Shown one piece after another: positions 8,301-63,583 of a DNA stretch of 64,000 bases (position 1 is its first letter; each line of letters opens with the position of its first letter). Where the stretch lies: contig CAWEMM010000006.1 of NCBI GenBank assembly GCA_963810095.1, forward strand, positions 1,600,001 to 1,664,000. Direction: 5' to 3'. The notes under the pieces were generated by a model. That model did no database searches and was not told where the DNA came from. It was given only the letters and a program-made list of their open reading frames with translations. Source of the stretch: an uncultured Chloroflexia bacterium. Lineage in GTDB: Bacteria > Chloroflexota > Anaerolineae > CG2-30-64-16. The position numbers and the translations under genes were made by a program.

Positions 8301-9089
8301 GTCGACCAGCGACTCCGCTACGCCCGGGGCGTAGGTGCGCCCGGCGGCCGTAGCCGGCAGGGTGACGGCCTTGAGGGCGCTCTCCCGGTTCAGGCGCTCA
8401 AGCCGGTACCGGGCCCGCAAGCTCTCGGGCAGGATGGGCGCATAGGGCGTGAGCTCGGCGATATAGTCCTCGCGCATGCTGAAGAGCACGTGCAGATCGG
8501 GGTAGGCGTCGAGCAGCGCGGCGACCTGGCGGAAGAAGCCTTCCCGCTGCGTCCAGTGCTCGGGTGAGGTGGTGAACAGCTCTTCGAACTGATCGAAGAC
8601 AAGCAGGGCGTCCGCCGGCGTCTCGACGGCCGGGTCTGCGGGCGGAGCGAGCAGCGGGGTCAGCCCGTCCACGAGCGCCAGCGAGGCGAGCTTCTCGGTC
8701 GGGGTATCCGGTCGTAAGGATAGGAGCGCACTGAGGACGTAGACGTTGGCAGGCGGACGGCCGCGTGCGGGCGTCGAGCCCGGATTGCCAACCGATGCGA
8801 TGGGCAGCACCCGCATCTTCTGATACGTGCGGGGCCGCGGTCCCCGGCCGATTGTCCGGGGTTCGGTCAATTCGGGGATGAGCCCCGCCCGCAGGAGCGA
8901 AGACTTGCCCGCGCCCGACTGGGCAAACAGCAACGAGGCCCGGCGAGCCATCACTAACCCTTCAAGGATGGCCGTTTCCTCGTCGCGGCCGAAGAAGAAC
9001 GCCCGTTCCCCCTGCTCGAAGGCGCGCGGGCCGACGTAGGGGTTGGCGTGCGGCTGGCCGGGGGGCGCGCTTTCAGAAGGACCAGTCAT
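5340..9089 (-). CDS. nSTAND1-type P-loop NTPase + transmembrane helix + ~14 WD40 repeats
   Basis: NPYVGPRAF..FFGRDEE, Walker A AQSGAGKSS, Walker B LLVFDQFEELF, ELAHDRL, TM STLATAAVLGALLIGLTTWALI, then many GH..V..VAFSPDG..LATAS.D.TA.IWD repeats. Start placed at MTGPSES. Confidence 0.9.
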   Translation of the reverse strand: MTGPSESAPPGQPHANPYVGPRAFEQGERAFFFGRDEETAILEGLVMARRASLLFAQSGAGKSSLLRAGLIPELTEPRTIGRGPRPRTYQKMRVLPIASVGNPGSTPARGRPPANVYVLSALLSLRPDTPTEKLASLALVDGLTPLLAPPADPAVETPADALLVFDQFEELFTTSPEHWTQREGFFRQVAALLDAYPDLHVLFSMREDYIAELTPYAPILPESLRARYRLERLNRESALKAVTLPATAAGRTYAPGVAESLVDNLRRAQPGKSGQHAGAPVARTSSPPGPLGGEVLGDYVEPVHLQIVCRQLWGSLKDGQEEIGPADVQEFGDVDEALTGFYDSALAQVVRQTGVRERQLRSWFEGHLITGARTCGLVYRDDKATEGLPNAAVDVLNDAYVIRAVVRGGDTWYELAHDRLVEPVLQSNAQWLTTYHNPLAGPAAAWIKGGRSERELLRGESLGAAQSFVRMNRGDLTEDETQFFDACVRQARLAAARRRSTLATAAVLGALLIGLTTWALINAREARRQAGLSRSRELAAAALANLDGDPEASVLLALDGLNLDYTSEAEDALHRSLEASRIERRLTGHQGAVHDVVYSPDGSRLATASADGTAEIWDAATGQPLLALKGHEGLVFGVDYSPNGAQIATAGYGDGTVRVWDATTGQQLLLLQDPAADQGAVFSVAFSPDGTRLASGGQDGRAAIWDVQTGSLLTSLAAHSDEVWSVAWNQDGSRLATGSRDGTAIIWDSASGTALLTLKGHASTVSAVAFSPDGTRLATASWDQTARIWDAVSGQEEQRLAGHTNWVRGIAFSPDGSRLATTSWDRTAKIWDVSSGRELMTLAGNRGWLMGVAFSPDGMHLATAEEDNVAKIWNVGPTQEVRTLLPHGGQPVNALAVSPDGKLVATAGEDGRARVWDTETGRLVANLKAHELRVRSVALASSCRDDSSAGPTGSAGCGLLLATGSDDRTARVWDLTTGQQVGATFTDDVPVTGVALHAGCAGGQSAACPVRLAVADSASAAVLDVGGDGPPVTLNGHERRINNIAFSPDGSLVVTSAADQTARIWDAATGRLLHTLQGHTGEVYYAAFSPDGRQVATVGIDQTLKLWDVATGKELKTLPGHRDRVTDVAFSPDGKQLASASWDRTVKVWDVAGARALLTFVGHTARVFGAAFGGDGTQLVSTGEDGTLRFYALDVNELKRLALARVTCGLTAEECVQYRLGSKAGTSQTGASRDEQGTTPQTTCGGGSQ

Positions 9090-11152
9090 CGCGGCCGGCT
9101 CCGAGGTACGATCGCCAGCGCCCGTGGAGCTCGGCAACGAACTGTGACGGGGTTCCCCAGTAGATGTCGATGCGGTATTGGTCCAGGTATCGAGCGAGGT
9201 ACTTGCGGGCCGCGTTCCGCGTCTGCGGCGTTTGCCATATCCAGTTGCACGCCCACGTGGATCTTTTTGCTGCGGTTGGTCTGGCTGATCGGGCGAATCA
9301 GGCCCTGCAACACGGCCCGAAACTCCCAATCGTCGATATCATACCCGAGGAACAGGAAGCTGTGCTCGGAGAGCATCCGAAGCACGTTCATGGGCATGAT
9401 CGACTCCTGGTCGCGCGACAGCCGTACGAAGTGCTGGAGGTAATCGTCCTCGCTCAGCACCAGGTGCTTGCGTTGATCGTCCTGGTCCGAGCCGCCCAGG
9501 TGGAAGACGACGGGGTTGTCGGGGCTGGGGGCCGGGGTGAGAACCCACTGTGGTGAGCCCGCGGCCGCTTGCTCCCAGCGGGGCCCCACCCGGCGGGCCG
9601 GCCGCCCGCGCTGCTTCAGCGCCTCGAACATAAAGCTGTCGACGTTCGTCGTCATGTACAGGCTCAGGGGGAGATCGGCCAGCAGGTGATGGATCTCGTT
9701 TTCCTGGATCTGCAGCACCTGCTCCGACCAGTTGAGCGCAGCGATGGTATCGCTCAGGCTCGCATCCTTAGCCTGCCGCTTCTGATCGTCCGTCGGCTGG
9801 ACGCCCAGGTAGCCAAATAGGCTGCGCTGGAGCAGGCGCAGGTAGTCCGATACCATGAGGTCGGGATCGTTGACCGCCATAAACTGCATCACCCGGTGCA
9901 GTTGGTTCCGGTCGGACAGCGGATAGCCGTACCGGTCGGCCAGCTTCTGCGCCAGCGCCTCCTCGCTCGACAGGAGCCCCTCGGTCACCCGCGGCCCGAG
10001 GAAGGCAGTGCAAAGGCCCTGGTCGACGTTTTCCAGGAGGAACGGCCAGAAGAGGTCGGCCCGGTCGCTGGTGATGATCCCGCGTTCGCCCAACAGCCGG
10101 CCCGACTGGAGCCGGCTGAAGAGGACGGGGATCGATGCGCCCGGAAGCCGGGCGGTCATAATGGCAGCGCGCGCTTCGTTTGCGGCCAGGTCGGCTTGGC
10201 CGTGCAGCAGGAGCCGCTGGTAGAAGGTGCGGCTGAAGGCGGCCGCGGTCTCCACGGACACCAGGTCTTGCATGGCCAGGACGGCCGGTGCGCCCGCCGC
10301 AACCAACTGGGGCGCCAGGCCGCGAAATGCGTCGGCCGGGCTGCGGGTGGCAGTCTGGCAGCTCGAGAGGTAGACCAGCCGCAGCTTGTCCTCTGTATCC
10401 AACGTGGCGTCTCCGAGCTGCCGCGCGAGCATGGCCGCGATCTCCTCGGCGCGGGCGAGGGTGACCGCATTCCGGTCGTCGGCGAGGTACAGGACCGCGC
10501 CGGTCCGCTCGCTGTAGCTGCCGTGGCCGACGAAGTGAAGGATGTGGCCGCCCTGCTTGAGCGCCGCCTCGATGGCCGGCAGCGTGCAAGGCTGGGGCAA
10601 GGGAACGACCTCGACCGGAAGTCCGTGCGTCGCGTCTGCCAGTGCCGCGCACTCGAGTGCGACGTCCAGGGCAGCCAGCCCGTACTCGGCCAGATTCGCC
10701 GGGTTAGCGACCGCGACGAGAATCCTGATGGGCCGCTTGAGGATAGGACTGCCCGGTTGCCACTGGCCTGCCAGGTAGCGGGAGAAAGGGGTCGCGGCGG
10801 ACGCGCCAATGTCCTGGACCGTGTCGCCGCCAGGGTCGCGCAGCAGCTCCCACGGCACAGTATGCAATTCGGGCGCGGCGGCATCGAGGCGCAGGCGCAG
10901 CCGGCGCCGGGGGGCCCGGCCCCGCACTTCGGCCCATGCGGCCTTGATCCGATCGTCGGCCACCAGGCAGGCGAACAAACGCTCGCCGTCTGCTTTCGGA
11001 TCGTCCCCCTCCACCCAGGGCACCAAGCTGGGTGCGATGAAGCCGCGGCGGTACTCCAACTCACGGTTAAGCGTAAGCTCGACCGGATATCCCTCTACCT
11101 GTCGGGGCAGGATGCGGATTTCCAGGTCTGTGAAGCCGTCGGTGTCGGGCAT
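9073..11152 (-). CDS. CHAT (caspase-like) protease domain fused to a SIR2-like (SIR2_2) domain; frameshift near 9210
   Basis: LHTVPWELL, HFVGHG and YLSSCQT (CHAT dyad), VLAMQ, then AFLGPRV, YMTTNVDS, LFLGYDIDDWEFR. The alternative frame gives a family-typical end KYLARYLDQYRIDIYWGTPSQFVAEL...DWSF*. Confidence 0.85.
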
Positions 11153-11335
11153 ACTGCTGGCCTGCTCGAGACTTGCACTAGTAGATATTAAGCACGATAC
11201 AATCGGACGACAAATTACAGCATGCGTCCTGCTAAGATTCCGTGAGCTTGGTTACCATGCGGTGGGCTTCCGGGCGTGTCCGCCGACCGCGGGACTGGCG
11301 CGCGAAGTTTTTCTGCACTTTGTAGGCCCGGCCCC

Positions 11336-11364
11336 TTGTCGGCGCCGTTCATACTTTGTATAAT
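11336..11364 (+). promoter_or_regulatory. Sigma70-type promoter for bcp
   Basis: TTGTCG-N17-TATAAT. Confidence 0.5.
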
Positions 11365-11402
11365 CTTGCTTGTCGATGTCAACCCGACCAGGAGAGGGGA
11401 AA

Positions 11403-11897
11403 ATGGCGAAGAAGGAAGTGGAAGTCCCGGCGGGCGTGCCTGAGGTGGGGAGCCCGGCGCCCGACTTTGAGCTGAAAAACGACGAGGGGAAGACCGTGCG
11501 GTTGAGTGACCTGCGGGGGAAGCGGGTCGTGCTCTATTTCTATCCGAAGGACGACACCCCAGGCTGCACCACGCAGGCCTGCGGCTTTCGTGACAATTAC
11601 GTGGAGATCCAGGAGCAAAACGCGGTCGTGCTGGGCATCAGCCCGGACGGCGAGAGCAGCCACGCCAAGTTCAAGACCAAGTTCAACCTGCCGTTCACCC
11701 TGCTGGCCGACCCCGAGCATGTCGTCTCAGAGGCTTACGGTGTGTGGCGCGAGAAGAGCATGTACGGCAAAACCTACATGGGCATCGTTCGCTCGCATTT
11801 CGTGATCGACGAGAACGGCAAGGTCGCAGACGTGCGCTACAGCGTCAGCCCGGACGACAGCGTGCAGAGCGCGCTGGCTGCGCTCCGTTTGAGCTGA
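11403..11897 (+). CDS. bcp: Thioredoxin-dependent thiol peroxidase (BCP/PrxQ peroxiredoxin)
   Basis: VLYFYPKDDTPGCTTQACGFRD motif; RBS ggagagg. Confidence 0.93.
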   Translation: MAKKEVEVPAGVPEVGSPAPDFELKNDEGKTVRLSDLRGKRVVLYFYPKDDTPGCTTQACGFRDNYVEIQEQNAVVLGISPDGESSHAKFKTKFNLPFTLLADPEHVVSEAYGVWREKSMYGKTYMGIVRSHFVIDENGKVADVRYSVSPDDSVQSALAALRLS

Positions 11898-11904
11898 TCG
11901 CGGT

Positions 11905-11960
11905 CTGGAAACGCAAAGGCGAGAGCCACCACATGGTCGCTCTCGCCTTTGCGTTTCCAG
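11905..11960. repeat. 22-bp perfect inverted repeat between convergent genes (bidirectional terminator or REP-like)
   Basis: ctggaaacgcaaaggcgagagc-N12-gctctcgcctttgcgtttccag. Confidence 0.75.
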
Positions 11961-11981
11961 GGGTTGGCAGGTGAGCTGCTT

Positions 11982-13163
11982 CTATACTCTGCCCCGCACC
12001 GCCTGCCCGAAGTGTCGGACCCGGATGCCGGGCCCAGTTGCGCCATAACGGGCACGGAGCCACGTCCGCTCGGGCCAGAGCGTCCGCCCTACGATGCGGG
12101 CAGCATCGCGGCTCCGGTCGACCAGCAGCAGTTGAAATGCAAGGCGCCGGGGCCCGCCTGTCATGTCGCGGCCTTCGAGCATGTAGGTGGTGCCGACGAA
12201 GCGGCGCAGGGCGCGGCGTCGGGCGGGCGGGGGTGCGAGCTTCGCAAGGGCTTTTGCCGCACCCGGCAACCCGAATAGCTCGTTTGCCAGGTCGAGCACC
12301 AGCCAGGTCGCCGTAGCCACCCGCCAAGCGCGCGCCCGCTCGGCCAGGATTGGCCAGTCGATAGCGTCGGTCCGGCTCAACAGGGCCACGTCGAGTAGCG
12401 CCCGGATGCCGGGATAGGCCATCTGGTGATTGACGGCGATGTGCACGGCGGACTGTACGATCGCGTCTTCCGGCGCGAGCGCGGAGGCGGGGCATCCGAG
12501 CACATCCACCTGGCGCACCCGCGCGCGAATGCCTGCGTCGTCGATGGCAGCCGTCCGCCGCACCCATTCGCCGGCAAATATGCCCCAGTGTAACTCGACG
12601 AGACCCGTGCCCGGCGCGGCGCTGATCATCTGTACCTCGCCGCCGGTATGCTGTTGCAGGTCGAGGGGCCGCTCGGGCTTGCGAAGCTCCCGGTAGCCGA
12701 TCGTGCCCAGTGCGGCCCGGGCCGGCGGCATCCCCTCGTGTGTCAGCCACAGGTCCAGGTCGCCCATGGGCCGGCAGGCCGGGTCCGGGTACGCGGTGTA
12801 GGCCAGGGCCGCGCCCTTGAACAGGACGGGCGAGACCCCGGCGTGCGCCAAGCACTCGAGGATGGTGCGGAGCTCGTCGCCGTGCAACTCGGCGTCGGCT
12901 GCCGCCGCGTAATAAGCGCTGCGCAGGGCCTGGGCCAGGGGTGCTGCCAGCGCCCGCGTGCACCCCGCAGTTTTCAGCCGGTGCCACACGAACGGCGCGA
13001 GGGCCAGCCGCGTCAGCCAGTCGGCCCAGGAGGCGTCGGCCCCGCTCTGCGCCCACTCGGCTAGCGCCGGCCCGTCATCCAACAGCCCGCGCAGAAGCCG
13101 CGCTCCGCCCGGGGGCGCCCACCCCGGGGGATGCCAGACGACCGGGTGCTTGGATTTCGCCAT
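11982..13163 (-). CDS. Uncharacterised nucleotidyltransferase family protein (NTP_transf_5-like)
   Basis: VLFKGAALAYTAYPDPACRPMGDLDLWL, VELHW and LLDVALL motifs. Confidence 0.85.
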   Translation of the reverse strand: MAKSKHPVVWHPPGWAPPGGARLLRGLLDDGPALAEWAQSGADASWADWLTRLALAPFVWHRLKTAGCTRALAAPLAQALRSAYYAAAADAELHGDELRTILECLAHAGVSPVLFKGAALAYTAYPDPACRPMGDLDLWLTHEGMPPARAALGTIGYRELRKPERPLDLQQHTGGEVQMISAAPGTGLVELHWGIFAGEWVRRTAAIDDAGIRARVRQVDVLGCPASALAPEDAIVQSAVHIAVNHQMAYPGIRALLDVALLSRTDAIDWPILAERARAWRVATATWLVLDLANELFGLPGAAKALAKLAPPPARRRALRRFVGTTYMLEGRDMTGGPRRLAFQLLLVDRSRDAARIVGRTLWPERTWLRARYGATGPGIRVRHFGQAVRGRV

Positions 13164-15109
13164 CAGGAGCGGACCTTCGTCTCGCCGCTGTACTCGGGGA
13201 CCAGGCTGCGCAGCGCGAGGCGCATGCTCTCTTCGTCCTGGCAGTACGCGGCCTCGAGAAGTGATTCGAGGCGGCCGGCCAGCGCATCGCTCGACCCGTC
13301 GAAGGCGCCATGACCGTTCGTGAAGCGCAGGATTTTCTCGTGCTCGGTGCGCCCGTAATGCTCGGACGACGTCAGCAGCTCCTCGTACAGCTTCTCGCCG
13401 GGGCGCAGGCCGGTGAACCGGATCTTGATGTCGCGGTCGGGCTCGAGGCCGGACAGGCGGATCAGGTCGCGCGCCAGGTCGACAATGCGGAGCGGTTCGC
13501 CCATGTCGAGCACGAACACTTCTTCCCCACGCCCCATCGTTGCCGCCTGCAGCACGAGTTGAACCGCTTCGGGGATGGTCATGAAGAAGCGCCGTACCTC
13601 GGGGTGGGTCACGGTGACGGGGCCACCCGCCGCGATTTGCTTTTGGAAGAACGGGACGACGCTGCCCCGGCTGCCGAGCACGTTGCCGAAGCGGACGGCC
13701 ACGTACGCGCAGCCGTGTGTGCGTGCCGATCGCTGGACGATCAGCTCGGCTACCCGCTTGGTTGCGCCCATGATGCTCGTCGGGTTCACGGCCTTGTCGG
13801 TCGAGATGAGTACGAAGTGGGTCACGCCAGCTGCTGCGCTTGCCTCCACCACCCGCAGCGTGCCAAACACGTTGTTCGTGATGGCGTCGGCGATGTTGTC
13901 TTCCATCAGCGGGACGTGCTTGTGCGCGGCAGCATGGAACACGACCTCGGGCCGGTGTTCGGCGAACACCGCACCCAGCCGCTCGGCGAAGCGAACGTCT
14001 GCAATGACGGGGGTAATGACGGGCTGGAGACCGGGAGGACAGGGGGAGTCGGGGCCGGCGAGCTCGGCCCGCAGCTCGTTGTGGATGTCAAAAATCGAGT
14101 TTTCGCCGTGGCCCAACAGGACCAGCGTCGCGGGGCAGCAGCGCAGAATCTGCCGGCAGAGCTCCGACCCGATGGAGCCGCCCGCGCCGGTGACGAGGAC
14201 CCGTTTGCCGTGCAACAGCGCTTCGACGCGTGCCGTGTCGGTGAGAACGGGCTCGCGGCGCAGCAGGTCGTCGATTTGCACGTCGCGCAATTGGTTCAGC
14301 CGGACGTTGCCGCCAAGAATCTCGTAGATGCCCGGCACGATGCGGGCCCGCACGCTGGCCGATTCGCAGATGTCCACGATCTCGCGGATTGTTTTGCCGG
14401 TCGCGCTGGGCATGGCGATGATGACTTGCTCGACGTGGTGCTGACGCACGAACTCGGGGATGGCGTCTCTGCCGCCCAGCACCCGCACACGGTTGAGTAG
14501 CACTCCGTGTTTGGCTGGGTCGTCGTCGACGAAGCCGACGGGGACCAGGCCCATCTGCGGGTTCTGGCGCAGCTCGCGCAGCACCATCGCGCCGGCCTCG
14601 CCCGCACCCACGATGAGGACGTGCTGCAAGGGACCACTGGCCTGGCCCTCCTTCCCCGACCGCTGCGCGTTCAGCGCGCCGGCGCGCAGTGCGAAGCGAG
14701 GCGCTGCGATGACGGCAAAGGTGATGAAGACGCTGATGAGGGGAATGGAGCGCGGCACACCGGGCGCCAGGAGGGCGGGGAAGAAGGCCTGGGCGCCGAG
14801 GAACAGCGCACCTTGTGCCAGCGAGCCAATCGCCGCGGCCCAAACCAGCAGCATCATTTCGTCGTATCCCGCGTACTGCCAGTAGCGGGAGTACAGGCCC
14901 AGGCCGGCGAAGATCGGCAGCATGATGATCGGGGCCGCGATCGCGTAGAGCAGCATGGTCTGCGCGTACGTCTGGATCAGGGCGCTGTCGAGGCGGAGTG
15001 CAAAGGCCAGGATGGCGGCCATCGGGAGGAGCAGCCCGTCGGTGAGGAGCAGGTGCCGGTTGCGCACGCGCAGCAGCAGCCGGGGCAGGGTAAAGGAAAA
15101 TGGTTTCAC
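13163..15109 (-). CDS. Membrane-bound UDP-GlcNAc 4,6-dehydratase (CapD/PglF/WbpM family)
   Basis: Four N-terminal TM helices, IVGAGEAG, VTGAGGSIGSEL, HAAAHKHVPLME, STDKAVNPTSIMGATKR, RFGNVLGSRGSV, GLRPGEKLYEEL. Confidence 0.93.
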   Translation of the reverse strand: MKPFSFTLPRLLLRVRNRHLLLTDGLLLPMAAILAFALRLDSALIQTYAQTMLLYAIAAPIIMLPIFAGLGLYSRYWQYAGYDEMMLLVWAAAIGSLAQGALFLGAQAFFPALLAPGVPRSIPLISVFITFAVIAAPRFALRAGALNAQRSGKEGQASGPLQHVLIVGAGEAGAMVLRELRQNPQMGLVPVGFVDDDPAKHGVLLNRVRVLGGRDAIPEFVRQHHVEQVIIAMPSATGKTIREIVDICESASVRARIVPGIYEILGGNVRLNQLRDVQIDDLLRREPVLTDTARVEALLHGKRVLVTGAGGSIGSELCRQILRCCPATLVLLGHGENSIFDIHNELRAELAGPDSPCPPGLQPVITPVIADVRFAERLGAVFAEHRPEVVFHAAAHKHVPLMEDNIADAITNNVFGTLRVVEASAAAGVTHFVLISTDKAVNPTSIMGATKRVAELIVQRSARTHGCAYVAVRFGNVLGSRGSVVPFFQKQIAAGGPVTVTHPEVRRFFMTIPEAVQLVLQAATMGRGEEVFVLDMGEPLRIVDLARDLIRLSGLEPDRDIKIRFTGLRPGEKLYEELLTSSEHYGRTEHEKILRFTNGHGAFDGSSDALAGRLESLLEAAYCQDEESMRLALRSLVPEYSGETKVRS

Positions 15110-48164: not shown

Positions 48165-49954
48165 ATGCCGAAGCTTCCTCTTCCTGCGCGGCTGGCCGGT
48201 GTTGCCCTCGTCGTCGCCTTTCTGATCCTGTCTATCCTGTACAGCGTCGTCAATCCCGCGTTCGAGTCGCCGGACGAGATCGGTCATTTCGGTTTCATCC
48301 AACATCTCGTTACCACCCGCTCCCTGCCCGTTCTGCGCCTGGGCGAGCCCGGCGAGGCGCACCAGCCGCCGCTCTACTACGTCGCTGGCGGCGGTCGCCG
48401 CGCTGCCGGCCGACTTTGCAGACGGCACGGGATGGTTTCGGCCCAACCCGAATTTCATGTGGGCGGGTAATGGTGGGTCTGACTTCAACGCCGGTCAGCA
48501 CAGTACCGCCGAAACGTTCCCTTTCAGTGGGCTCGCACTGGCCCTGCACCTGGCGCGCGGCCTGTCGCTGCTCATGGGCCTGGGGACCGTCTTGCTCACC
48601 TTCGTGATCGGTTCGCGGGTGTTCGCCGAGCGCCCCCTGGTGGCCCTGTTGGCGGCCGCGCTGGTGGCGTTTGTCCCACAGTTCCTGTTCGTCAGCGGCT
48701 CGGTTAACAACGACAACCTGGCCGTGTTTCTGGCAACGCTCGCCTTTCTCCAGATGGTCCGGCTGCTGGAGGATCCGCAGCGTGGGGGCCAGTGGCTGTT
48801 GCTGGGCATTATCGTAGCGGCAGGCATCCTCACGAAGATGTCGGGCTTCGTGATCGGGCTGCTGGCCGTGATGCTCCTGATCGTTTCCGCGATCCGGCAG
48901 CGCTCGGTCAAGCTGTTCGGCACGGGCCTGCTTGGCCTTGGCATCCCGGCGGTGCTCCTGGCCGGCTGGTGGTTTGTGCGCAACCAATTTCTCTACGGTG
49001 ACCCACTCGCCTGGGGCCTCTACCGTGAGGTGTTCGCTGCCAATCTCCGCAAGGGCCCGTTGAATGGCACCGACTTGCCCCTGTTCCTGTCCACGCAGTT
49101 CCGCTCCTTTCTCGGGCTGTTCGGCTGGATGAATGTGCCGGCCCCGGTCTGGTTTTATCGCGGCGCCGGTGTGCTGGCCGTCCTGGGGCTCGTGGGCCTG
49201 GCCGTGTACCCGTTTGCGCGCCGGCGCCGGTCGCCCCTGTCACCATTGCAGCGCGATGCACTTGCCGGCATGGTGATCGCAGTCGTCGTGCAGGAGCTCT
49301 ATATCCTCGGCACCATCGTGCGTTGCGATGCCTCCTGCTACCAGGGCCGGTACCTGTTCCCGGCCATCGCCCCACTGATGCTGCTCCTGGCTTTTGGGCT
49401 GCTCGGCCTGGTTCCGCGGCGGGCGGCCGGGTGGGTGACCGCCGGCGTGTCGCTTGTCGCTGGTGGCGGCCGCGCTGTACATGCCGCTGCGTGTGATTGT
49501 TCCCGCCTACGCGACCGCACCGCAGCCGAAGTGGAGCGTGTGGCTGCTGCCGCACAAGAGCGGCGCGACTTTTGGCGACCAGATCCGGCTGGCCGGGTAC
49601 GCGGCACGGGTGGAGCCCGGCGGCGGGGCAGTCAAACTCACGCTGTACTGGGAAGCGTTACGGACGCCGGACTTCAATTACTCGGCCTTTGCCCACCTGC
49701 TCGACGCGGGCGGGCAGGTCGTCGCGCAGCAGGACCGGGCCCCGGGCGAAGACAGGGGATATCCGCCGCAGGCCTGGCTGCCCGAGGATATCGTGATCGA
49801 CGAGCACACGCTGCCGTTGCCGCCCGGGGGCGCGGGAAAGCCGTACAAACTGCGGGTGGGGCTGTACAACTGGCAGAACGGCCAGCAGCTGCCGGTAAGC
49901 CAGGGCGGGCAGCCGGCCGGCACGTTCGTACTGCTCGACTCTCCCGGGAGTTAA
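48165..49954 (+). CDS. GT-C (ArnT/PMT-like, DUF2142-type) membrane glycosyltransferase with a C-terminal extracellular beta domain (frameshifted)
   Basis: PAFESPDEIGH, HQPPLYY, SVNNDNL, QGRYLFP, then a Chloroflexi-type domain LTLYWEAL..YSAFAHLLD..W.PEDIVID..VGLYNW. Confidence 0.85.
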
Positions 49955-50045: not shown

Positions 50046-50074
50046 TTGACACGCGCCGAACGTGCACCTATAAT
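50046..50074 (+). promoter_or_regulatory. Perfect consensus sigma70 promoter driving a long leader and micropeptides 1-2
   Basis: TTGACA-N17-TATAAT. Confidence 0.8.
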
Positions 50075-50419
50075 GCACTGGTATTTTTTCCGTGACAACG
50101 CGAGCGGTCCTCATCAACTTCGCCGTCTCTCGCGCTTCACGGCTCCCCTTCACCACAGGAGCGAGGGCAGGGCGCGTGCCTATGCGTTGCTTGTTGCCAT
50201 TACCGGCCATCTTGCGCATAGATAGGGTGCTGCGCGAATCCAAAGCCCGCGCGCCCTGGCTTCCCTCGGCATCGAGTTTGACGTTTCCGTAGGATTGGCC
50301 ACCCGGCGGCCCCGGCCCGGGTGGCCAATCTGCGAGGGAGCGCTCAACCGATTCGTCCGTTTAGTCATCTCTTCCGTCTCAAGCGTGACTGCTTGTCGGA
50401 GTGTCTCGTGGAGGACACC

Positions 50420-50461
50420 ATGGCAAAGACATGCGCGGACGGTGTGATCGGCGGCAACTAA
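50420..50461 (+). CDS. Micropeptide 1, MAKTCADGVIGGN (13 aa)
   Basis: GGAGG 5 nt before the ATG; C-terminal DGVIGGN shared with micropeptide 3. Confidence 0.75.
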   Translation: MAKTCADGVIGGN

Positions 50462-50476
50462 AAGAGGAGGACCGTC

Positions 50477-50581
50477 GTGGCACACCGTATGTGGTTCTTG
50501 GCGACTTGGCTGCTGATGACCGCTGCCACCCTGGGCGTGTTGTTGGCTCCTTGTTTCGATGGAGTTGTAGGCGGCGGCTGA
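50477..50581 (+). CDS. Micropeptide 2, MAHRMWFLATWLLMTAATLGVLLAPCFDGVVGGG (34 aa; hydrophobic leader + motif)
   Basis: AGGAGG 6 nt before the GTG; ends in DGVVGGG. Confidence 0.72.
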   Translation: MAHRMWFLATWLLMTAATLGVLLAPCFDGVVGGG

Positions 50582-50616: not shown

Positions 50617-50648
50617 GAGGAAGGGCGGACGCCCGTCCGCCCTTCCTC
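50617..50648 (+). terminator. 14-bp hairpin after micropeptides 1-2 (terminator or attenuator)
   Basis: gaggaagggcggac-gccc-gtccgcccttcctc; weak U-tract. Confidence 0.6.
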
Positions 50649-50690: not shown

Positions 50691-51614
50691 ATGGCTTCCC
50701 TTTCCCGCACACTCAGTTCGGACAGCTTCGCCACCTTTGCACGTTTAGTCGGTCTTGTCAGCGCGCTGGCTGCGTTTGTCGCGGTTGCGGCGCCCGGCGA
50801 AACGCCCCGCCGCTTGGCCTGGGTCCTGGGCCTGTTGGGCATAGCTGCGGTCATGCTGATCATTAGCTGGAAGAAGGTGCGCGGCGGCATTGCCGCGTGG
50901 GGCGAGCGGCACGACTGGAACCGGACGTTCACCTACCTCTCACGCCGCTACACGTGGGGCATCGAGCACGTGGGCGTAACGACCGTCGTTCAACCGGACG
51001 GCTCGGCCACCATCACGCGCAAGCCCACCATCATCTCCCGTGGCCTGATCCAGGAAATCGAGCAGACGCTGCACTTCCCCGAGCAAGACCTGCGCCCCGG
51101 GTGGTCTACCCCCCAGGAGTTGAGCTCACACGTGGAGTTCAAAGGCGGCGAAGCAGCGCGGTGCAACCCCAGTGAGATCGAATCGAGCGACGGGCGCTGG
51201 CTGATCAAGGTCCACTTTACGCCGGCACTTGCCGACGGCAAGACCGCGTCCTTCGAGTTGGCAGAGCAGCTTTGGCCAGCGCTGTACGGCGTGGATTTGA
51301 CGCCGAGCGAGCTGGCTCAGCGGACGCCCGACTATATTGCCTGGGTGATCGACAGGCCGATGTTGAAATTGGTGCTCGACGTTTACTTCCCGGGCAACTA
51401 CAACGCCACCTCGCCTGATTTCCAGGTCTTCTTCGCTCCCGTGCTGCGCAAGGCCAAATGGCGGGCCCATGATGCCGAGCGTAAACGCCTGGCCGACGTG
51501 CGCGCGTTCAGGAACGAGCACAACGGCCCCATCCAGCATCTGCAGCTCACGGTCGACTCGCCCATTCCGGGGCTCATCTATCGCCTGGAATGGGGCACGC
51601 TGCGCAGTCATTAA
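50691..51614 (+). CDS. Orphan protein: two N-terminal TM helices + beta-strand-rich C-terminal domain
   Basis: Intact 307-aa ORF. Two hydrophobic helices, then WKKVR, then TVVQPDGSATIT..VHFTPAL..WVIDRPMLKLVLDVYFP..LTVDSPIPGLIYRLEW. Confidence 0.8.
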   Translation: MASLSRTLSSDSFATFARLVGLVSALAAFVAVAAPGETPRRLAWVLGLLGIAAVMLIISWKKVRGGIAAWGERHDWNRTFTYLSRRYTWGIEHVGVTTVVQPDGSATITRKPTIISRGLIQEIEQTLHFPEQDLRPGWSTPQELSSHVEFKGGEAARCNPSEIESSDGRWLIKVHFTPALADGKTASFELAEQLWPALYGVDLTPSELAQRTPDYIAWVIDRPMLKLVLDVYFPGNYNATSPDFQVFFAPVLRKAKWRAHDAERKRLADVRAFRNEHNGPIQHLQLTVDSPIPGLIYRLEWGTLRSH

Positions 51615-51646: not shown

Positions 51647-51676
51647 TTGACAATTTGGTTAAAGTTGGGTTATTAT
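51647..51676 (+). promoter_or_regulatory. Sigma70-type promoter for micropeptide 3
   Basis: TTGACA-N18-TATTAT in an AT-rich patch. Confidence 0.6.
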
Positions 51677-51764
51677 TCCGTCATCACCTTGGTGTGAATC
51701 GCGAGACGGGGGCTGCTCCGTCTCGGTGGCATTTAACCCCATTTGCAGCCGCACGGAGGCGTGG

Positions 51765-51809
51765 ATGAAGACTCGAAAGCAGCGTGATGGCGTCATCGGA
51801 GGAAACTGA
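51765..51809 (+). CDS. Micropeptide 3, MKTRKQRDGVIGGN (14 aa)
   Basis: GGAGG 5 nt before the ATG; own promoter and terminator; DGVIGGN encoded with different synonymous codons from micropeptide 1. Confidence 0.75.
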   Translation: MKTRKQRDGVIGGN

Positions 51810-51823
51810 CGCGGTCACGCAGG

Positions 51824-51859
51824 AAGCAAAAACCGGGCGTTCGCCCGGTTTTTGCTTTT
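51824..51859 (+). terminator. Rho-independent terminator (bidirectional type)
   Basis: aagcaaaaaccgggcg-tt-cgcccggtttttgctttt. Confidence 0.85.
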
Positions 51860-51923
51860 AGAAGCTATCCGAAAATGCACTGGCCGGTCGGAGACCGGCC
51901 AGTGCATTTTCGGATAGCTTCTA
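51859..51923. repeat. 31-bp perfect inverted repeat with a 3-nt loop
   Basis: tagaagctatccgaaaatgcactggccggtc-gga-gaccggccagtgcattttcggatagcttcta. Confidence 0.9.
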
Positions 51924-58650: not shown

Positions 58651-58986
58651 GTCCACGTTGTCGCAGTCTGTCCTGTTATCGCCGCTTTCAAGGCGGGAGG
58701 CTGCAATTGTCCGCATCGACCGTCGTGGTGTGTCTTTCCCCGCACCCGTCGGCGTCCTATCGTTCCTCAAATTTGCCAGATGAGGACCGATTCGCTCTCG
58801 AATCGATCTGCGTGACCGGTTCGTGCGCTGCCATCGGTCCGCCGGGCGCATTTTGGCGCGCCTGCGGACTGTCGTCGTCCCCTGGCCCGCCTGGCCCTTG
58901 ACGTGCCGCGTCCTGAAAGCCAGGCCCATCTCCATCTCGGTTATTCATTCATCTACTCACAACTTAATCATCCGTGGAGGAAGACC

Positions 58987-61900
58987 ATGACCCCATCCTT
59001 CCGACAGCCCAGGACGCTGCCGCTGGCGCTCCTGCTGTTCGCCATGCTGGCATTCACTGTCCTGGCAGCACTTGTGCCGATGCCGGCCTCTGCCGAGGGC
59101 GCGCCCTACAAGCAAGTTCCGGGCTACCCCAAGTACGGCTGCTATGACGTCGTCACCGGCGGCAATGGCATGTGGAGCGGCGCGACCCCCTACCCGTTCA
59201 GCGTCGATGTGCCCGGTCCCGTTGTCGATGCTTATCTGGTCTGGGTCGGCACGGAGGACACGGGCGCACCGAACTCGCCCAACCAGAGCGATCTGACCGT
59301 CAACGGTACGACGGTGATCGGCAGCCTGGTCGACTCGAATAAGCCCGGCGCCGGCGACCCCTGGTGGTACATGTGGCGGGCAAACGTCGGACCGAGCGGT
59401 CTGAACCTCGTCAAGACGGGTGCGAACAATTACAGCGCGAGCGGCTGGAACTTCTCCCCGGATGGCACGCGGCGGAACGGCATCAGCCTCGTCGTCGTGT
59501 ACAGCACGGGCGCTTGCACGAAGCCGAATCAGGTCAACCTGATCGACAATTTCGATTATTACTGGGAGCGCCAGACGGGCACGACCGACGTCATGGCGTT
59601 TACTTTCCCGCCGACGCCTTTCGATCGTGACGTCACCGTGTGGCTGCATCAAGCGGGCACCGACTTCGTCAATACCAGCACAGCCCCCAATAAGGGCGAG
59701 GTGTCGGTCGCCGCACCCGACGCGGTAGCGCCCAGCGCCTGCCGCGGCATGTACCTGGCGGCCAAGACGGGGACGGGCACACCGCCCGTGAACATGATCG
59801 ATTACCCCGCGTCTCCCAACGAGCCCCCTGCGGCGCCGTGGTCTCTCTTGACCACCAACGGCGGTAAGTTGGTCGTCAGGGATCCGTTCGTGGGTTCGAC
59901 CTGCCAAAGCACCTCGTGGGTCTGGCCGGTGACGAGCCTCACCGGTTGGGTCGACGGGCAGGGCTGGACGCGCGACGTGGGCGGCTACATCGCACCGGAA
60001 TGGTCAATCGTCAAGGTTACGGTGCGCGTCCTCGCCGGCCAAACCTACCTGGCGCTTCAACTCGGCTCGCAGAAGACAGGTAATCCGGAGATTGTGGACA
60101 CCGGCGAGAGCGGCGCGTGGTTTGCGCAGGCCATCGTCCCGGTCCTCGATGTCAAGCTGCGGATCAGCAAGACCGACGGCGTCGATACGGCGAAGCCGGC
60201 CGACACGCTGACCTATACGCTCAACTACGAGAACTACGGCGCGTCTCCCACCGACAACACGACGATCGTCGACACGCTGCCCGAGCGGGCCACGTTTGTT
60301 TCAGCGTCGAACGGTGGCGTTTATGACGCCGCCACTCGCACGGTCAAGTGGAACCTGGGAACGGTTGCGAGTGGGGCCAAGGGCGCTGTGACGCTCGCGG
60401 TGAAGCTCGACCCGGTCTTCCCGGCCGGGACGACCGCCCTGACCAACACGACGACCATCAGCACGTCGACCCAGGGCGAGCAGGACTTGTCGGACAATAC
60501 TGCTACGGACACGACGAACGTCGTGGCGAAGGCTGAGTTGGCCATCACCAAGGCCGGCGCGCCCGAGCCTGTGGATGCGGGCAGCAACCTGACCTACACC
60601 ATCAACTGGACTGTAGGCGGCAACGCCTTCTCTGACAATGTGACGGTGGTCGATACGCTCCCCACGAATGTGACGTTCGTGAGCGCGTCGGATGGCGGCA
60701 CTTTCGCCGCGGGCAAGGTGACCTGGAACTTGGGCAACGTGACCCCGGTGAAGACCGGCACGGTGACGTTGGTGGTCAAGGTCAACAGCCCGCAGCTGAA
60801 TGGCACCGCGATCAATAACTCGGCCACGATCAGCAACCAGGCCGGCGACACGGCGACTGCGACGGCAAAGAACACCGTCCGGTCGGACCACGAGCTGACC
60901 ATCACGAAGGCAGACAATCCCGATCCGGTGCAGAAGGGCGCGAACATCACCTACACGATCACGTGGGGTGTGTCGGGCAATGAGCCGGCGCAGACCCTCG
61001 TCGTGAAGGACCCGGTTCCCTTCGGCACGAGCTTCGTGAGTGCGGACAGCGGCGGCACTTACGACAGCGCGACCCGGACGGTCACCTGGGCGCTTGGCGA
61101 CAAGATGCCGGGCGATACGGGTACGCTGACCATGGTCGTGAAGGTGGCGACCGACTTCCCGAACGGGATCAAGGTCGAGAACACCGCGACCATCAGCGAC
61201 GCGCGGCCGGGCAAGGAAAAGCAGGCCACCGAACTGACCGGCGTTGTCCAGACGCTTGAAGGCGTGATCGGCGACACCGTTTGGCTCGACCTGAACAAGA
61301 ACGGCGTGCAAGAACCCGGCGAGCCGGGGCTGAGCGGCATCGGGCTCGTTCTCAATAATGCGGGTGCGGACAACGCCTGCGGCACGGCCGACGATGCGCA
61401 GGTGGGACCGCGGTCACCGACGCGAACGGCAAGTACAGCTTCAAGCACCTGCCCGCGGGCGTGTTCTGCGTCGACGTGACCGACGCGACGGTGCCGGCCG
61501 GGATGACGCTTGTCTCGGGCACGGACCCCCGCAAGGTCACGCTGGCCGAGAACCAGGTGTACCTCGACGCCGACTTCGGCTACTGGTCCGCCTTGGGCGT
61601 GATTGGCGACCTCGTTTGGAGCGATGCGAACGGCAACGGCGTGAAGGACCCGAGCGAGGTTGGCATCGGTGGGGTCACGCTCGACCTGTACAAGGCGGGT
61701 GGCGACGGGCAGTGCGGCACGGCGGACGACGCCATGCTGGCTTCGGTTACCACGGCCGCGGACGGCAGCTACCTGTTCGGCGGCCTGGTCGCAGACAAGT
61801 ACTGCGTGAAGGTCACCGATACGGCGGGCAAGCTCACCGGGCTGACCCAGACGAAGGCGCCGGTGCAGCCCGTTACCCTGGCTGCGGGGCAGCTGTTCCT

Positions 61901-63583
61901 GGATGCGGACTTCGGCTACCAGGGCCTGTGCGGCGAGGTAGGCGACTTCGTCTTCTACGATGCGAACCGCAACGGTGTCTACGACGGCCCGCCGCAAGAG
62001 AAGGGTATCAGCGGCGTGTCGCTGAGCCTGACCATCGCCGGCCCGGACGGCAACTTCGGCACCGGGGATGACGTAACCCTGGCGACGGTGCTCACCGACG
62101 CGAACGGCGCCTACCTGTTCAACGGCCTGGCCGTGGGCACCTACCACGTCAACGTGACGGACGTGAACGGCCGCCTGGTCGGGTACACGCAGACGTTCGG
62201 TGCGCCGAATACGAACAATAACGGCCAGGCGATGCCCTTCCCGGTCACCGTCACCAACTGCACGAGCATCCGCTATGCAGACTTCGCCTATGCGGACGGC
62301 CACCTGCTGACGATCACGAAGACAAACAACCTGCCTGCCGGTCAGCCGGTGGAGGCGGGTGAGGAGCTGATCTGGACCCTGGGATACAGCGTGAGCGGCC
62401 GCGGCACGCGCACCCAACGTCATGATCACCGACCCACTGCCCGCGCAGGTCGACTTCGTGTCGGCCAGCAACGGCGGCACCTACGATGCGGCGACCCGCA
62501 TCGTCACGTGGAAACTGGGCAACCTGGACCCGGGCGGCGAGCGGCTCGGTGACGCTGACGGTCCGGGTGAAGAGGCCGCTGGACAAGAACAGCTACATCT
62601 TCAACACGGGCGAGATCACGGACGATGCGAAGGCAACCGGATGATGCGACCGACATGGTCCCGTATGCAGCCCCGGTGCTCGAGCGTCACCAAGACCGAA
62701 CGACCCGGCCGGCGAAGTGAAACCCGGCGACACGATCACGTATGAAGTCTGTGTCTCCAACACGGGCAACGGCAACGCGACTAACGCCGTGATGAGCGAC
62801 GTGATCCCGGTCAACACGACGTATGTGGCCGGCTCGGCGACGGGTGGCGGGGTCTACAACGAAGCCACGAAGACCGTGACCTGGAAGAAGAACCCTACTG
62901 GCGCCGGACGAGAAACTGTGCGGCACCTTCAAGGTGAAGGTCAACATGGTCATCACCGGTCTGACGGGCCAGGAGAACGTGGCGATGAAGTTCTCCGAGT
63001 GGAACGCCGTCAGCATCGACAACACGGTGACGGCGACTGCGGATGGCCTCCCGCCCAAGACCGCGACCGGTGAGCAACCCGCTTGTGGCGACCGTGAACC
63101 CGCTAATCTACAAGTCGGTGGACAAGTCGCAGGTGGCGGTGGGCGAGCCGGTCGTCTTCACGCTGACGTCCGGAATGAGGGCACCGCTTCGGCCACGAAC
63201 ATCGTCGTCACCGACCAGATCCCGCCGAAGCTGGAAGGGGTGACCGTGACGACCACCAAGGGTGCGCGGTGTTCGACCCGAACACCCGGCTGCTCACGGT
63301 GACGATCGGCCAACTCGAACCCGGCCGAGACGGTTACGTCACGATCAAGGGTAAGGCGGCGTTCCGTGCGGCGAACGTGCCCTACACGATGAAGAACAAG
63401 GCGTCGTGTCCTTCACGGAAGGCGCGCCGCGCACGTCGAACGGGTGACCGTGACGGTCGACGACTTCCGCCGGCGGAAATCCCTGAGCCGGGTACCTGGC
63501 TGATGCTGGGCGCCGGCCTGGCCGGGTTGGCCGGCTACGCACGGGTGCGGGCGCAGGCTCGCCGGCGGAAGCAGCAGAAGTAA
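58987..63583 (+). CDS. Large secreted surface protein: N-terminal beta domain, DUF11 repeats, SdrD-B-like repeats, C-terminal PEP-CTERM-type sorting signal (frameshifted after ~61400)
   Basis: Signal peptide ending PASA; repeats ITK..PV..G..LTYTI..D.LP..FVSAS.GG.YD....VTW.LG; repeats IGD.VW.D.N.NG.....E.G..G; ends IPEPGTWLMLGAGLAGLAGYARVRAQARRRKQQK. Confidence 0.88.

Follow-up and report, generated by a model that had tools for sequence, protein, structure and literature searches.

A conserved peptide-gene cassette beside a putative membrane-anchored peptide receptor in an uncultured Chloroflexia bacterium

To our knowledge, the cytoplasmic receptors of bacterial peptide signals are tetratricopeptide repeat (TPR) proteins of the RRNPP type, mostly controlling transcription or phosphatases, and the ligand-gated defence effectors with two transmembrane (2TM) helices read nucleotides. 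Here we analysed 64,000 nucleotides (nt) of DNA from an uncultured Chloroflexia bacterium (contig CAWEMM010000006.1, positions 1,600,001 to 1,664,000; this whole stretch is called the window), in which a gene for a 2TM protein with a β-rich C-terminal domain (50691-51614) lies among three micro-genes that end in a common peptide tail. Judging from the sequences, the linkage of the peptides to the receptor-like gene is strong, the cassette is real and conserved, and the outputs fused to the β domain in relatives are of the conflict type. On balance we favour the view that the protein is the membrane-anchored form of a putative cytoplasmic peptide receptor and that the cassette is a peptide-gated switch in biological conflict, probably in defence.

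Among known systems, RRNPP (Rap-Phr, PlcR-PapR, AimR-AimP, the two-peptide PrgX, and RopB-LCP) is recognized by criteria that include a propeptide of 10-100 amino acids (aa), Sec export, an adjacent receptor of 250-500 aa and, as the defining element, TPRs (passages of PMC10075063 on these criteria); one leaderless peptide signal is also described, the LCP of RopB (in the part of PMC10518010 drawn on here). The present locus is alike in its small propeptide, putatively of the Sec type, with signal-like last few residues, in the putative cytoplasmic receptor of 250-500 aa beside it and in peptide variants that track receptor clades: peptide 2 has 34 aa, and the 307-aa receptor-like protein starts 109 nt past its end. 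The putative Sec signal of peptide 2 is read by inspection from its basic N-region and hydrophobic core, with Phe ahead of the tail. In contrast to RRNPP, the receptor is all-β without TPRs or a helix-turn-helix (HTH) domain (no TPR family of Pfam matched, and the confident model is all-β past the TM helices), leaderless and signal-peptide copies of one tail stand in tandem, the fused outputs are TM helices, TIR, caspase, PNP, STAND and EAD adaptors, and the loci with organism names are all from Chloroflexota.

The 2TM effectors of CBASS and Pycsar and the 2TM-β effector OptE of Panoptes (mCpol/OptS) resemble the protein in joining two N-terminal TM helices to a soluble, cytoplasmic β domain for ligand binding, a role that is putative here. 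The Panoptes effector is repressed by a constitutive signal, the loss of which leads to membrane collapse (sections of PMC12657230 and PMC12657218 on this mechanism). Here, by contrast, the cassette has no nucleotide cyclase, and what would serve as the signal is a peptide made on ribosomes and provided with an export route. The first-pass annotation of the gene, made from the DNA alone, had compared it with CBASS/Pycsar effectors, a parallel that holds as an analogy and goes no further: no SMODS (CD-NTase) match was found in the 88.5%-complete genome (a control matched in 3/14; PycC and mCpol were not searched genome-wide), and by fold the domain comes closest to ribophorin I and M1 N-domains. 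As to a known effector family such as SAVED or the Cap15/OptE β-barrel, the domain matched no PADLOC or NCBIfam family and the fold searches ranked ribophorin I and M1 N-domains first; an effector family outside these lists may still be represented.

The domains fused to the β domain come from the same pool as those of the EAD/bDLD and EACC1-caspase conflict systems (Kaur et al., 2020, 2021), namely EAD7, EAD8, bDLD1, TIR, caspase, PNP, STAND and ParA-like. Passages of PMC8195603 and PMC7159879 on conflict-system domains assign EADs, bDLD1 and caspase pairs to the conflict systems that multicellular bacteria carry; the β domain does not appear in those passages, the supplements of both papers lying outside the coverage. 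Some EAD/caspase systems are linked to small precursors with a conserved C-terminal peptide, FxSxx-COOH, in modules with a zincin peptidase, often a radical-SAM enzyme, and an AP-ATPase/TPR partner (passages of PMC7159879); none of these is constant here, and the tail differs. Genes of the zincin, radical SAM or AP-ATPase-TPR kinds are not in the window cassette, and no constant neighbour was apparent by eye at the other loci, where not all neighbours were scanned; one relative (P0144) carries an FxSxx_TPR-like NTPase segment under the cut-off. The shared motif of bacterial amyloid signalling (BASS) was likewise not found, the tail standing just at the three micro-ORF (open reading frame) ends and being absent from the C-terminus of the receptor. 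A literature search, with subscription papers and the supplements of Kaur et al. outside its coverage, returned no description of this domain or peptide; what appears to be new here is the receptor fold, the putative twin-route peptide and the fused effectors.

The features of the locus are as follows.

50046..50074, + strand: promoter-like site P1, TTGACA-17-TATAAT, matching the consensus at 12/12 positions, upstream of the peptide genes (called by consensus match alone)
50293..50330, + strand: leader hairpin with a 14-bp perfect stem, about 90 nt ahead of peptide 1
50420..50461, + strand: peptide 1, a leaderless 13-aa ORF, MAKTCADGVIGGN, with a GGAGG site upstream
50477..50581, + strand: peptide 2, a 34-aa ORF with a GTG start, basic N-region, hydrophobic core and tail DGVVGGG; signal-peptide-like precursor
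50617..50648, + strand: GC-rich hairpin between the peptide genes and the receptor, terminator- or attenuator-like, with a weak U-tract in this copy
50691..51614, + strand: receptor-like gene, with 2 TM helices at residues ~16-34 and ~42-60, a long helix and an all-β domain at ~89-306
51647..51676, + strand: promoter-like site P2, TTGACA-18-TATTAT, 11/12, for peptide 3, with TTAACC...GGTTAA on either side of the -35 box
51765..51809, + strand: peptide 3, a stand-alone leaderless 14-aa ORF, MKTRKQRDGVIGGN, with a GGAGG site upstream
51824..51857, + strand: 16-bp hairpin with a U-tract, an intrinsic-terminator-like end of the peptide 3 unit
51859..51923, no strand: 31-bp perfect inverted repeat between the cassette and the convergent radC

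From P1 to radC the unit holds just the three micro-ORFs and the receptor. Each micro-ORF follows a GGAGG-type site and ends in DGV[IV]GG[NG]. The leaderless peptides 1 and 3 named in the first pass are real ORFs with sequences like ribosome-binding sites; that reading had overlooked peptide 2, the signal-peptide copy, whose conservation in the cassette equals that of the leaderless one. The strict tail pattern occurs in 3 of the 191,879 stop-to-stop frames of the 6.1-Mb genome, and all three are the micro-ORFs of this locus. Three promoter-like sites of the σ70 consensus type were found, compared with 0.4 ± 0.7 in shuffles.

The tie between peptides and receptor proved far stronger than the first pass had seen. 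We compared 29 homologue loci, two of which (L023 and L024) have identical domains while several others are close kin, using a detector that looks for a short ORF ending in GG and, no more than 180 nt further on, a hydrophobic ORF that also ends in GG and has a similar tail. Such a pair is present in 22 of the 29 receptor loci, in none of 29 control loci (86 kb, picked for GG-rich patterns) and once in the 6.1-Mb genome, at the locus described here. Among the misses, L003 has an evident pair with hydrophobicity below the threshold, L020 has a single peptide gene at the contig edge, and in L017, L019, L024 and L063/L067 the contig ends on the side where relatives hold their peptides. In L023 (166-315) peptides 1 and 2 are fused in one ORF with the tail twice, by natural fusion or a lost stop.

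One draw of 401 genomes from the class yielded the receptor in 8 and a tight two-peptide DNA pattern in 4, the reversed control pattern matching once. Three of the four pattern matches (G000, G380 and G673) are real and beside a receptor, and the fourth (G682) is low-complexity DNA; the other five receptor genomes hold variant pairs (G501, G580, G766 and G649) or a truncated locus (G708). A looser pattern matched 44 of the 401 genomes and its reversed control a number of the same order; it was rejected as noise and its loci were reused as controls. The receptor is present in 3 of 401 genomes of a draw from the phylum and in 1 of 7 same-genus relatives, and of nine loci with organism names eight are from Anaerolineae-type lineages and one is labelled Chloroflexota. 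Viral contigs contained no receptor and no peptide pair, with two single-pattern matches, neither at a stop codon, and tblastn with P0025 gave no match in plasmids or phages.

The peptide genes are usually upstream of the receptor, and downstream (L005, L006), convergent (L015) and divergent (L020, L072) arrangements also occur, which argues for action in trans. A third, downstream peptide copy is also present in L002 and L059. Of 23 correctly placed loci, 20 have a stem of at least 9 bp past peptide 2, with z ≤ -2 in 17 of the 23 (the L068 row being excluded from these counts) and z = -1.7 at the present locus. Ala or Gly, as expected ahead of the cleavage point of signal peptidase I, precedes the tail in 15 of 24 signal-type precursors, typically as P-V-L-A followed by D-G.

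The common tail has 6-7 residues, [DN]-G-x-[IV]-[GA]-G-G. Over 36 strict tails, Asp and Asn are each written with both codons and the Gly of position 2 with all four, a synonymous spread which implies that the tails are constrained as protein. Tail variants appear to follow the receptor clades of an IQ-TREE tree, the match being made by inspection, with bootstrap not fully settled and labels shared by kin. DGSIGG tails belong to the clade of L009, L010 and L016 (support 100/100), DGSVGG to L012 and L014 (100/97), long-Gly tails without the Asp/Asn start to L015, L061 and L062 (99/97), and GG[NS]-ending tails to L001, L002, L059 and L022 (98/97), three of which have a third, downstream copy; the placement of the window's protein and of L002 is unsure because of long branches. 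In the most divergent clade, L060/L005/L006 (100/99), a motif-free search gave the tails DGARGG, SVHGGG and SAQGGG. Paired tails show small recurrent differences, such as DGAIGG against DGAIAGG, which may leave room for an agonist/antagonist pair.

The receptor-like ORF starts with ATG and encodes 307 aa. Its GC content at third codon positions is 0.81 and it has 159 relatives at E ≤ 1e-3, so it is a real gene. Hydrophobic segments at residues ~16-34 and 42-60 (Kyte-Doolittle, 19-residue means of ~2.0-2.1), the WKKVR that follows TM2 and the C-terminus PIPGLIYRLEW agree with the first description of two TM helices and a β-rich domain ending P..G..YRLEW. So does the AlphaFold2 model (90-row alignment; pLDDT 88.8, pTM 0.80), which has helices at 11-33 and 38-87 and is almost wholly β from 89 to 306. 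Over 83 two-TM relatives, Lys plus Arg average 2.4 ahead of TM1, 0.8 in the loop and 2.8 past TM2, in agreement with an N-in, C-in topology; together with the fusion of the same domain to the cytoplasmic TIR, caspase and PNP, this upholds the earlier placement of the C-terminal domain in the cytoplasm.

The protein is not an orphan, as had been thought, and belongs to an unannotated family. Although no Pfam, NCBIfam, PADLOC or PHROG family covers the β domain, an exhaustive phmmer search gave 159 representatives after 50% clustering, mostly with 22-35% identity over residues ~75-305. Word-index protein searches returned the receptor itself alone in one case and 2 matches in another, and a further search added 49 matches, all named just 'hypothetical protein'. 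In an alignment of 138 domains, G104, R110, P178, E192, W218, R222, P223, E263, R266, P291, Y297 and W301 are among the positions with at least 75% conservation. The top fold match is the luminal domain of ribophorin I (6s7o_E, Z 12.6, root mean square deviation 3.4 Å over 179 aligned residues; 6c26, Z 12.5), followed by Legionella lpg2210 (Z 11.0) and M1 aminopeptidase N-domains (3kd4, Z 10.9; ERAP1, 10.3; LTA4H, 10.0), all at 5-16% identity. The matches span just the N-terminal ~200, non-catalytic residues of M1 peptidases; the receptor stops at the end of its β domain and has no catalytic zincin domain, so it is not an M1 aminopeptidase. The fold is thus like that of ribophorin I, M1 and DUF2207 N-domains, with the differences that the ribophorin I domain is luminal and the present one cytoplasmic and that the M1 catalytic domain is absent; this likeness gives no function. 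One relative shows a faint DUF2207 match (E 6e-4, under the cut-off), and a BFVD fold search gave weak matches alone. In the ESM Atlas the nearest look-alikes are unnamed clusters (0.93-0.95, 279-305 aa, mostly Actinomycetota; best named cluster 0.79), possibly the wider superfamily of the domain.

The β domain is a mobile module. Among the best 150 of the 159 representatives, to which the family counts refer, two N-terminal TM segments are present in 83, one in 13 and none in 54, some being fragments. Pfam matches in 98 representatives (P0002-P0100 minus P0041) comprise EAD7 in 13, TIR in 6, bDLD1 in 4, caspase in 2, PNP in 1 and ParA-like in 1, with no match in 70 and a nucleoside deoxyribosyltransferase-like match under the cut-off in one; 14 hand-picked from the other 50 add TIR in 3, EAD7 in 4, EAD8 in 1 and nSTAND1 in 1. 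Of the partners that the first pass had thought worth looking for, TIR is fused to the domain, and HTH, nuclease or other transcription-output fusions were absent from the 112 representatives scanned.

Some relatives stand in larger units. In L012 (1602-4729) and L014 (1681-4699) the peptide pair heads a two-gene unit of a P-loop protein, with a weak KAP NTPase match in L012, and a 550-aa protein with a C-terminal β domain. In L062 (3080-3547; L073) a gene for an 8xMP octameric membrane protein (PF24838) lies just upstream of the peptide pair and a TIR-β-domain gene. In L020 (549-2524) a caspase-β-domain fusion follows a ~130-aa gene without a Pfam match, the peptide gene being divergent at the contig edge; this arrangement resembles the EACC-caspase layout. 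In L066 (~1790-2435) the receptor is separated from the peptide genes by an uncharacterised TM/β-rich/TM gene, and a similar one precedes the receptor in L017 and L019, possibly as an extra component in one subgroup. In L072 (~8650-13500) a TIR-like frame is split from the β domain by what we presume to be a transposase-like insertion, with a second peptide pair downstream, and another presumed transposase-like gene lies between the TIR/β-domain frames and the divergent peptide pair.

These observations suggest the following mechanism for the favoured peptide-gated switch. Two or three micro-genes encode the same tail, once after a short, usually Lys/Arg-rich leaderless N-terminus and once after a Sec-type signal, as read from the sequences. 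Signal peptidase would free the exported tail, and an oligopeptide permease would bring it back; the genome has 18 matches to PF00496 oligopeptide-binding proteins. The leaderless copy would stay inside, where aminopeptidases may trim its basic N-terminus to the same Asp/Asn start, so the cell would sense its own peptide and that of its neighbours. The tail would then bind the β domain, a step to which modelling lends weak support, and binding may gate the fused output: the 2TM helices here, and TIR, caspase, PNP, STAND or EAD7/EAD8/bDLD1 in relatives.

As to the sign of control, we lean slightly towards restraint over activation. Under restraint, an excess of peptide would hold the effector off, and peptide loss, for example through phage host shut-off or the death of neighbours, would free it. 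The peptides should exceed the receptor because their genes open the transcript, between consensus promoters and a terminator-like hairpin. Restraint is preferred because an activator made constitutively within the cell would be a hazard next to a TIR or caspase fusion, because a constitutive repressor whose loss frees a 2TM effector is the demonstrated logic of Panoptes, and because the clade with GG[NS] tails keeps a spare leaderless copy.

Binding was modelled with the domain (residues 70-307, 90-row alignment) and the 34-aa peptide 2 (15-row alignment). The complex scored 0.41 (runs 0.48, 0.41 and 0.35), compared with 0.00 for the best control; the runs agree in at least 17% of contacts, the partner pLDDT is at least 54, and the verdict of the tool is 'weak support'. 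In the tool's benchmark, 116 of 157 solved complexes came up to its mark, as did 2 of 215 mismatches; 18 of these solved complexes and both mismatches scored 0.60 or less.

Several points weigh against the proposed switch. The score of 0.41 is in a range where, by the tool's own rating, a guess fails more often than it holds if it was not already likely, and the hydrophobic segment of the 34-aa partner could be its driver; tail and hydrophobic segment are not separable in this respect because the prediction returned no interface. Phe, not Ala or Gly, precedes the tail in the locus's own peptide 2, so its cleavage site is non-canonical, and 9 of 24 precursors have no Ala or Gly at that place. 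The commonest form of the family (83 two-TM proteins among the best 150 of 159) lacks an enzymatic effector, and its helices may be just an anchor. The neighbours are of the housekeeping type (mannosyltransferase-like, radC, DUF3467) with no evident defence island, the β domain itself has no PADLOC match, and a genome search for an EAD7 partner found none, none of its controls having matched either. In addition, the pair detector was designed after the first loci had been seen, several loci being close kin, and sequence cannot tell the sign of control.

The most serious competitor, which we regard as unlikely, is a peptide receptor for ordinary cell-density or filament signalling, with the two helices as anchors and output through partner proteins. 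The small secreted-type propeptide and the adjacent 250-500-aa cytoplasmic receptor correspond to several RRNPP criteria (passages of PMC10075063), most members are 2TM forms without an enzyme, and phage and plasmid collections gave no matches, all in its favour; yet no HTH or transcription output occurs in the 112 representatives, the Pfam-named fused domains are nearly all conflict-type, and the spread is patchy (8/401 genomes of the class, 1/7 of the same genus), with one locus by a tRNA gene, as for mobile cargo. We find it improbable that the peptides belong to the cassette and have a target other than the β domain, acting as amyloid-like seeds, TM-acting membrane peptides or GG-ended conjugation tags. 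The Gly/Val/Ile-rich, GG-ended tail and the weak binding support leave some room for this, and amyloid motifs do connect adjacent defence genes, including those for TIR and EAD7 proteins, in the part of 10.1101/2024.11.07.622273 considered here. On the other hand, the peptides accompany the β domain whatever its fusion, including TM-less TIR and caspase forms (L062, L015, L020), their tails vary in step with the domain tree, the loci showed no conserved gene for a ligase or another enzyme, and 6-7 residues compare with 23-24 in the synthetic amyloid peptides of the Bab/Agp work (same part of that source).

Two further explanations deny the peptides a role of their own. We give very little credence to cis-acting leader peptides which, by attenuation or ribosome stalling, tune hairpin read-through into the receptor while the peptides are inert: a strong hairpin does follow peptide 2 in most loci, in the usual order of peptides, hairpin and gene, but peptide genes also lie downstream, convergent or divergent, peptide 3 forms a unit apart, with promoter-like and terminator-like sites of its own, and attenuation needs no conserved signal-type precursor. 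That the short ORFs are chance products, or by-products of GGAGG ribosome-binding sites, beside an unrelated membrane protein is extremely improbable and largely refuted by the counts (3/191,879 frames genome-wide; 22/29 against 0/29 loci; synonymous codons across the tail). In several loci the last GG codons of peptide 1 indeed read GGAGG just upstream of peptide 2, but the tail also closes peptides 2 and 3, which have no gene start behind them.

A broader immune reading of the switch is one that we hold tentatively and with some doubt: a ribosome-made peptide would serve as an immune second messenger through intracellular and exported routes, quorum-gating TIR, caspase, PNP or membrane effectors that are held off or triggered depending on the cell's own translation as well as on how its neighbours fare. 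It seems to us equally open to doubt that the β domain would then be a peptide-binding domain not described before, with a fold related to ribophorin I and M1 N-domains. The cassette could also turn out to be peptide quorum sensing with a novel structural basis. If true, the fusion of a peptide receptor without TPRs to cell-death effectors, with in-cell and exported copies of one peptide to feed it, would join quorum sensing to immunity. One could then test directly whether the point at which bacteria, especially filamentous Chloroflexota, sacrifice themselves depends on how their neighbours fare. With no more than a 6-7-mer and a domain of 230 aa, which is naturally fused to many outputs, the pair is very small and might provide a modular peptide switch.

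Some further observations concern the non-coding parts of the locus. The TTAACC...GGTTAA sequence brackets the -35 box of P2 (51638-51661), and TTAACCCCATT recurs 95 nt downstream (51733-51743); together these form a possible operator, so peptide 3 may be regulated. A motif, TT[TC]CCGT[GAC], is present just past both promoter-like sites and just ahead of the leader hairpin (50087-50096, 50284-50292, 51676-51684) and, by eye, in many homologue leaders (L007-L016); it could be a start-site or regulator motif. Hairpins like the leader one were also seen by eye ahead of peptide 1 in several homologue loci, and an Rfam search gave nothing near the gathering score. An RNA-library contig identical to 50226-50446 spans the leader and part of peptide 1, the sequencing runs yielding low-share contigs alone; it was not counted as expression because DNA carry-over is possible. 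The DNA runs may include the source sample.

With respect to genomic context, the cassette occurs at the same site in several Anaerolineae (L008-L011), and these loci are therefore not independent; the genes around that site are presumably those of tyrosyl-tRNA synthetase and glycine dehydrogenase. The cassette of the same-genus homologue L002 ends beside a tRNA-Lys gene (1202-1276), as is often the case for integrated elements. In the window, radC (JAB domain) next door was considered as a GG-cleaving partner and rejected, as it was not seen beside other loci. The upstream mannosyltransferase-like membrane gene (PMT_2/DUF2142, 48457-49954) is split in two frames near 49454-49470, probably by an assembly error, since one sequencing-run contig lacks one letter at 49457; many other genes of the window are also frame-split. 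Among these is a large surface protein with DUF11 and SdrD_B repeats (58903-63583), whose last frame ends in a PEP-x-x-W/hydrophobic/basic tail that we take to resemble a PEP-CTERM sorting signal.

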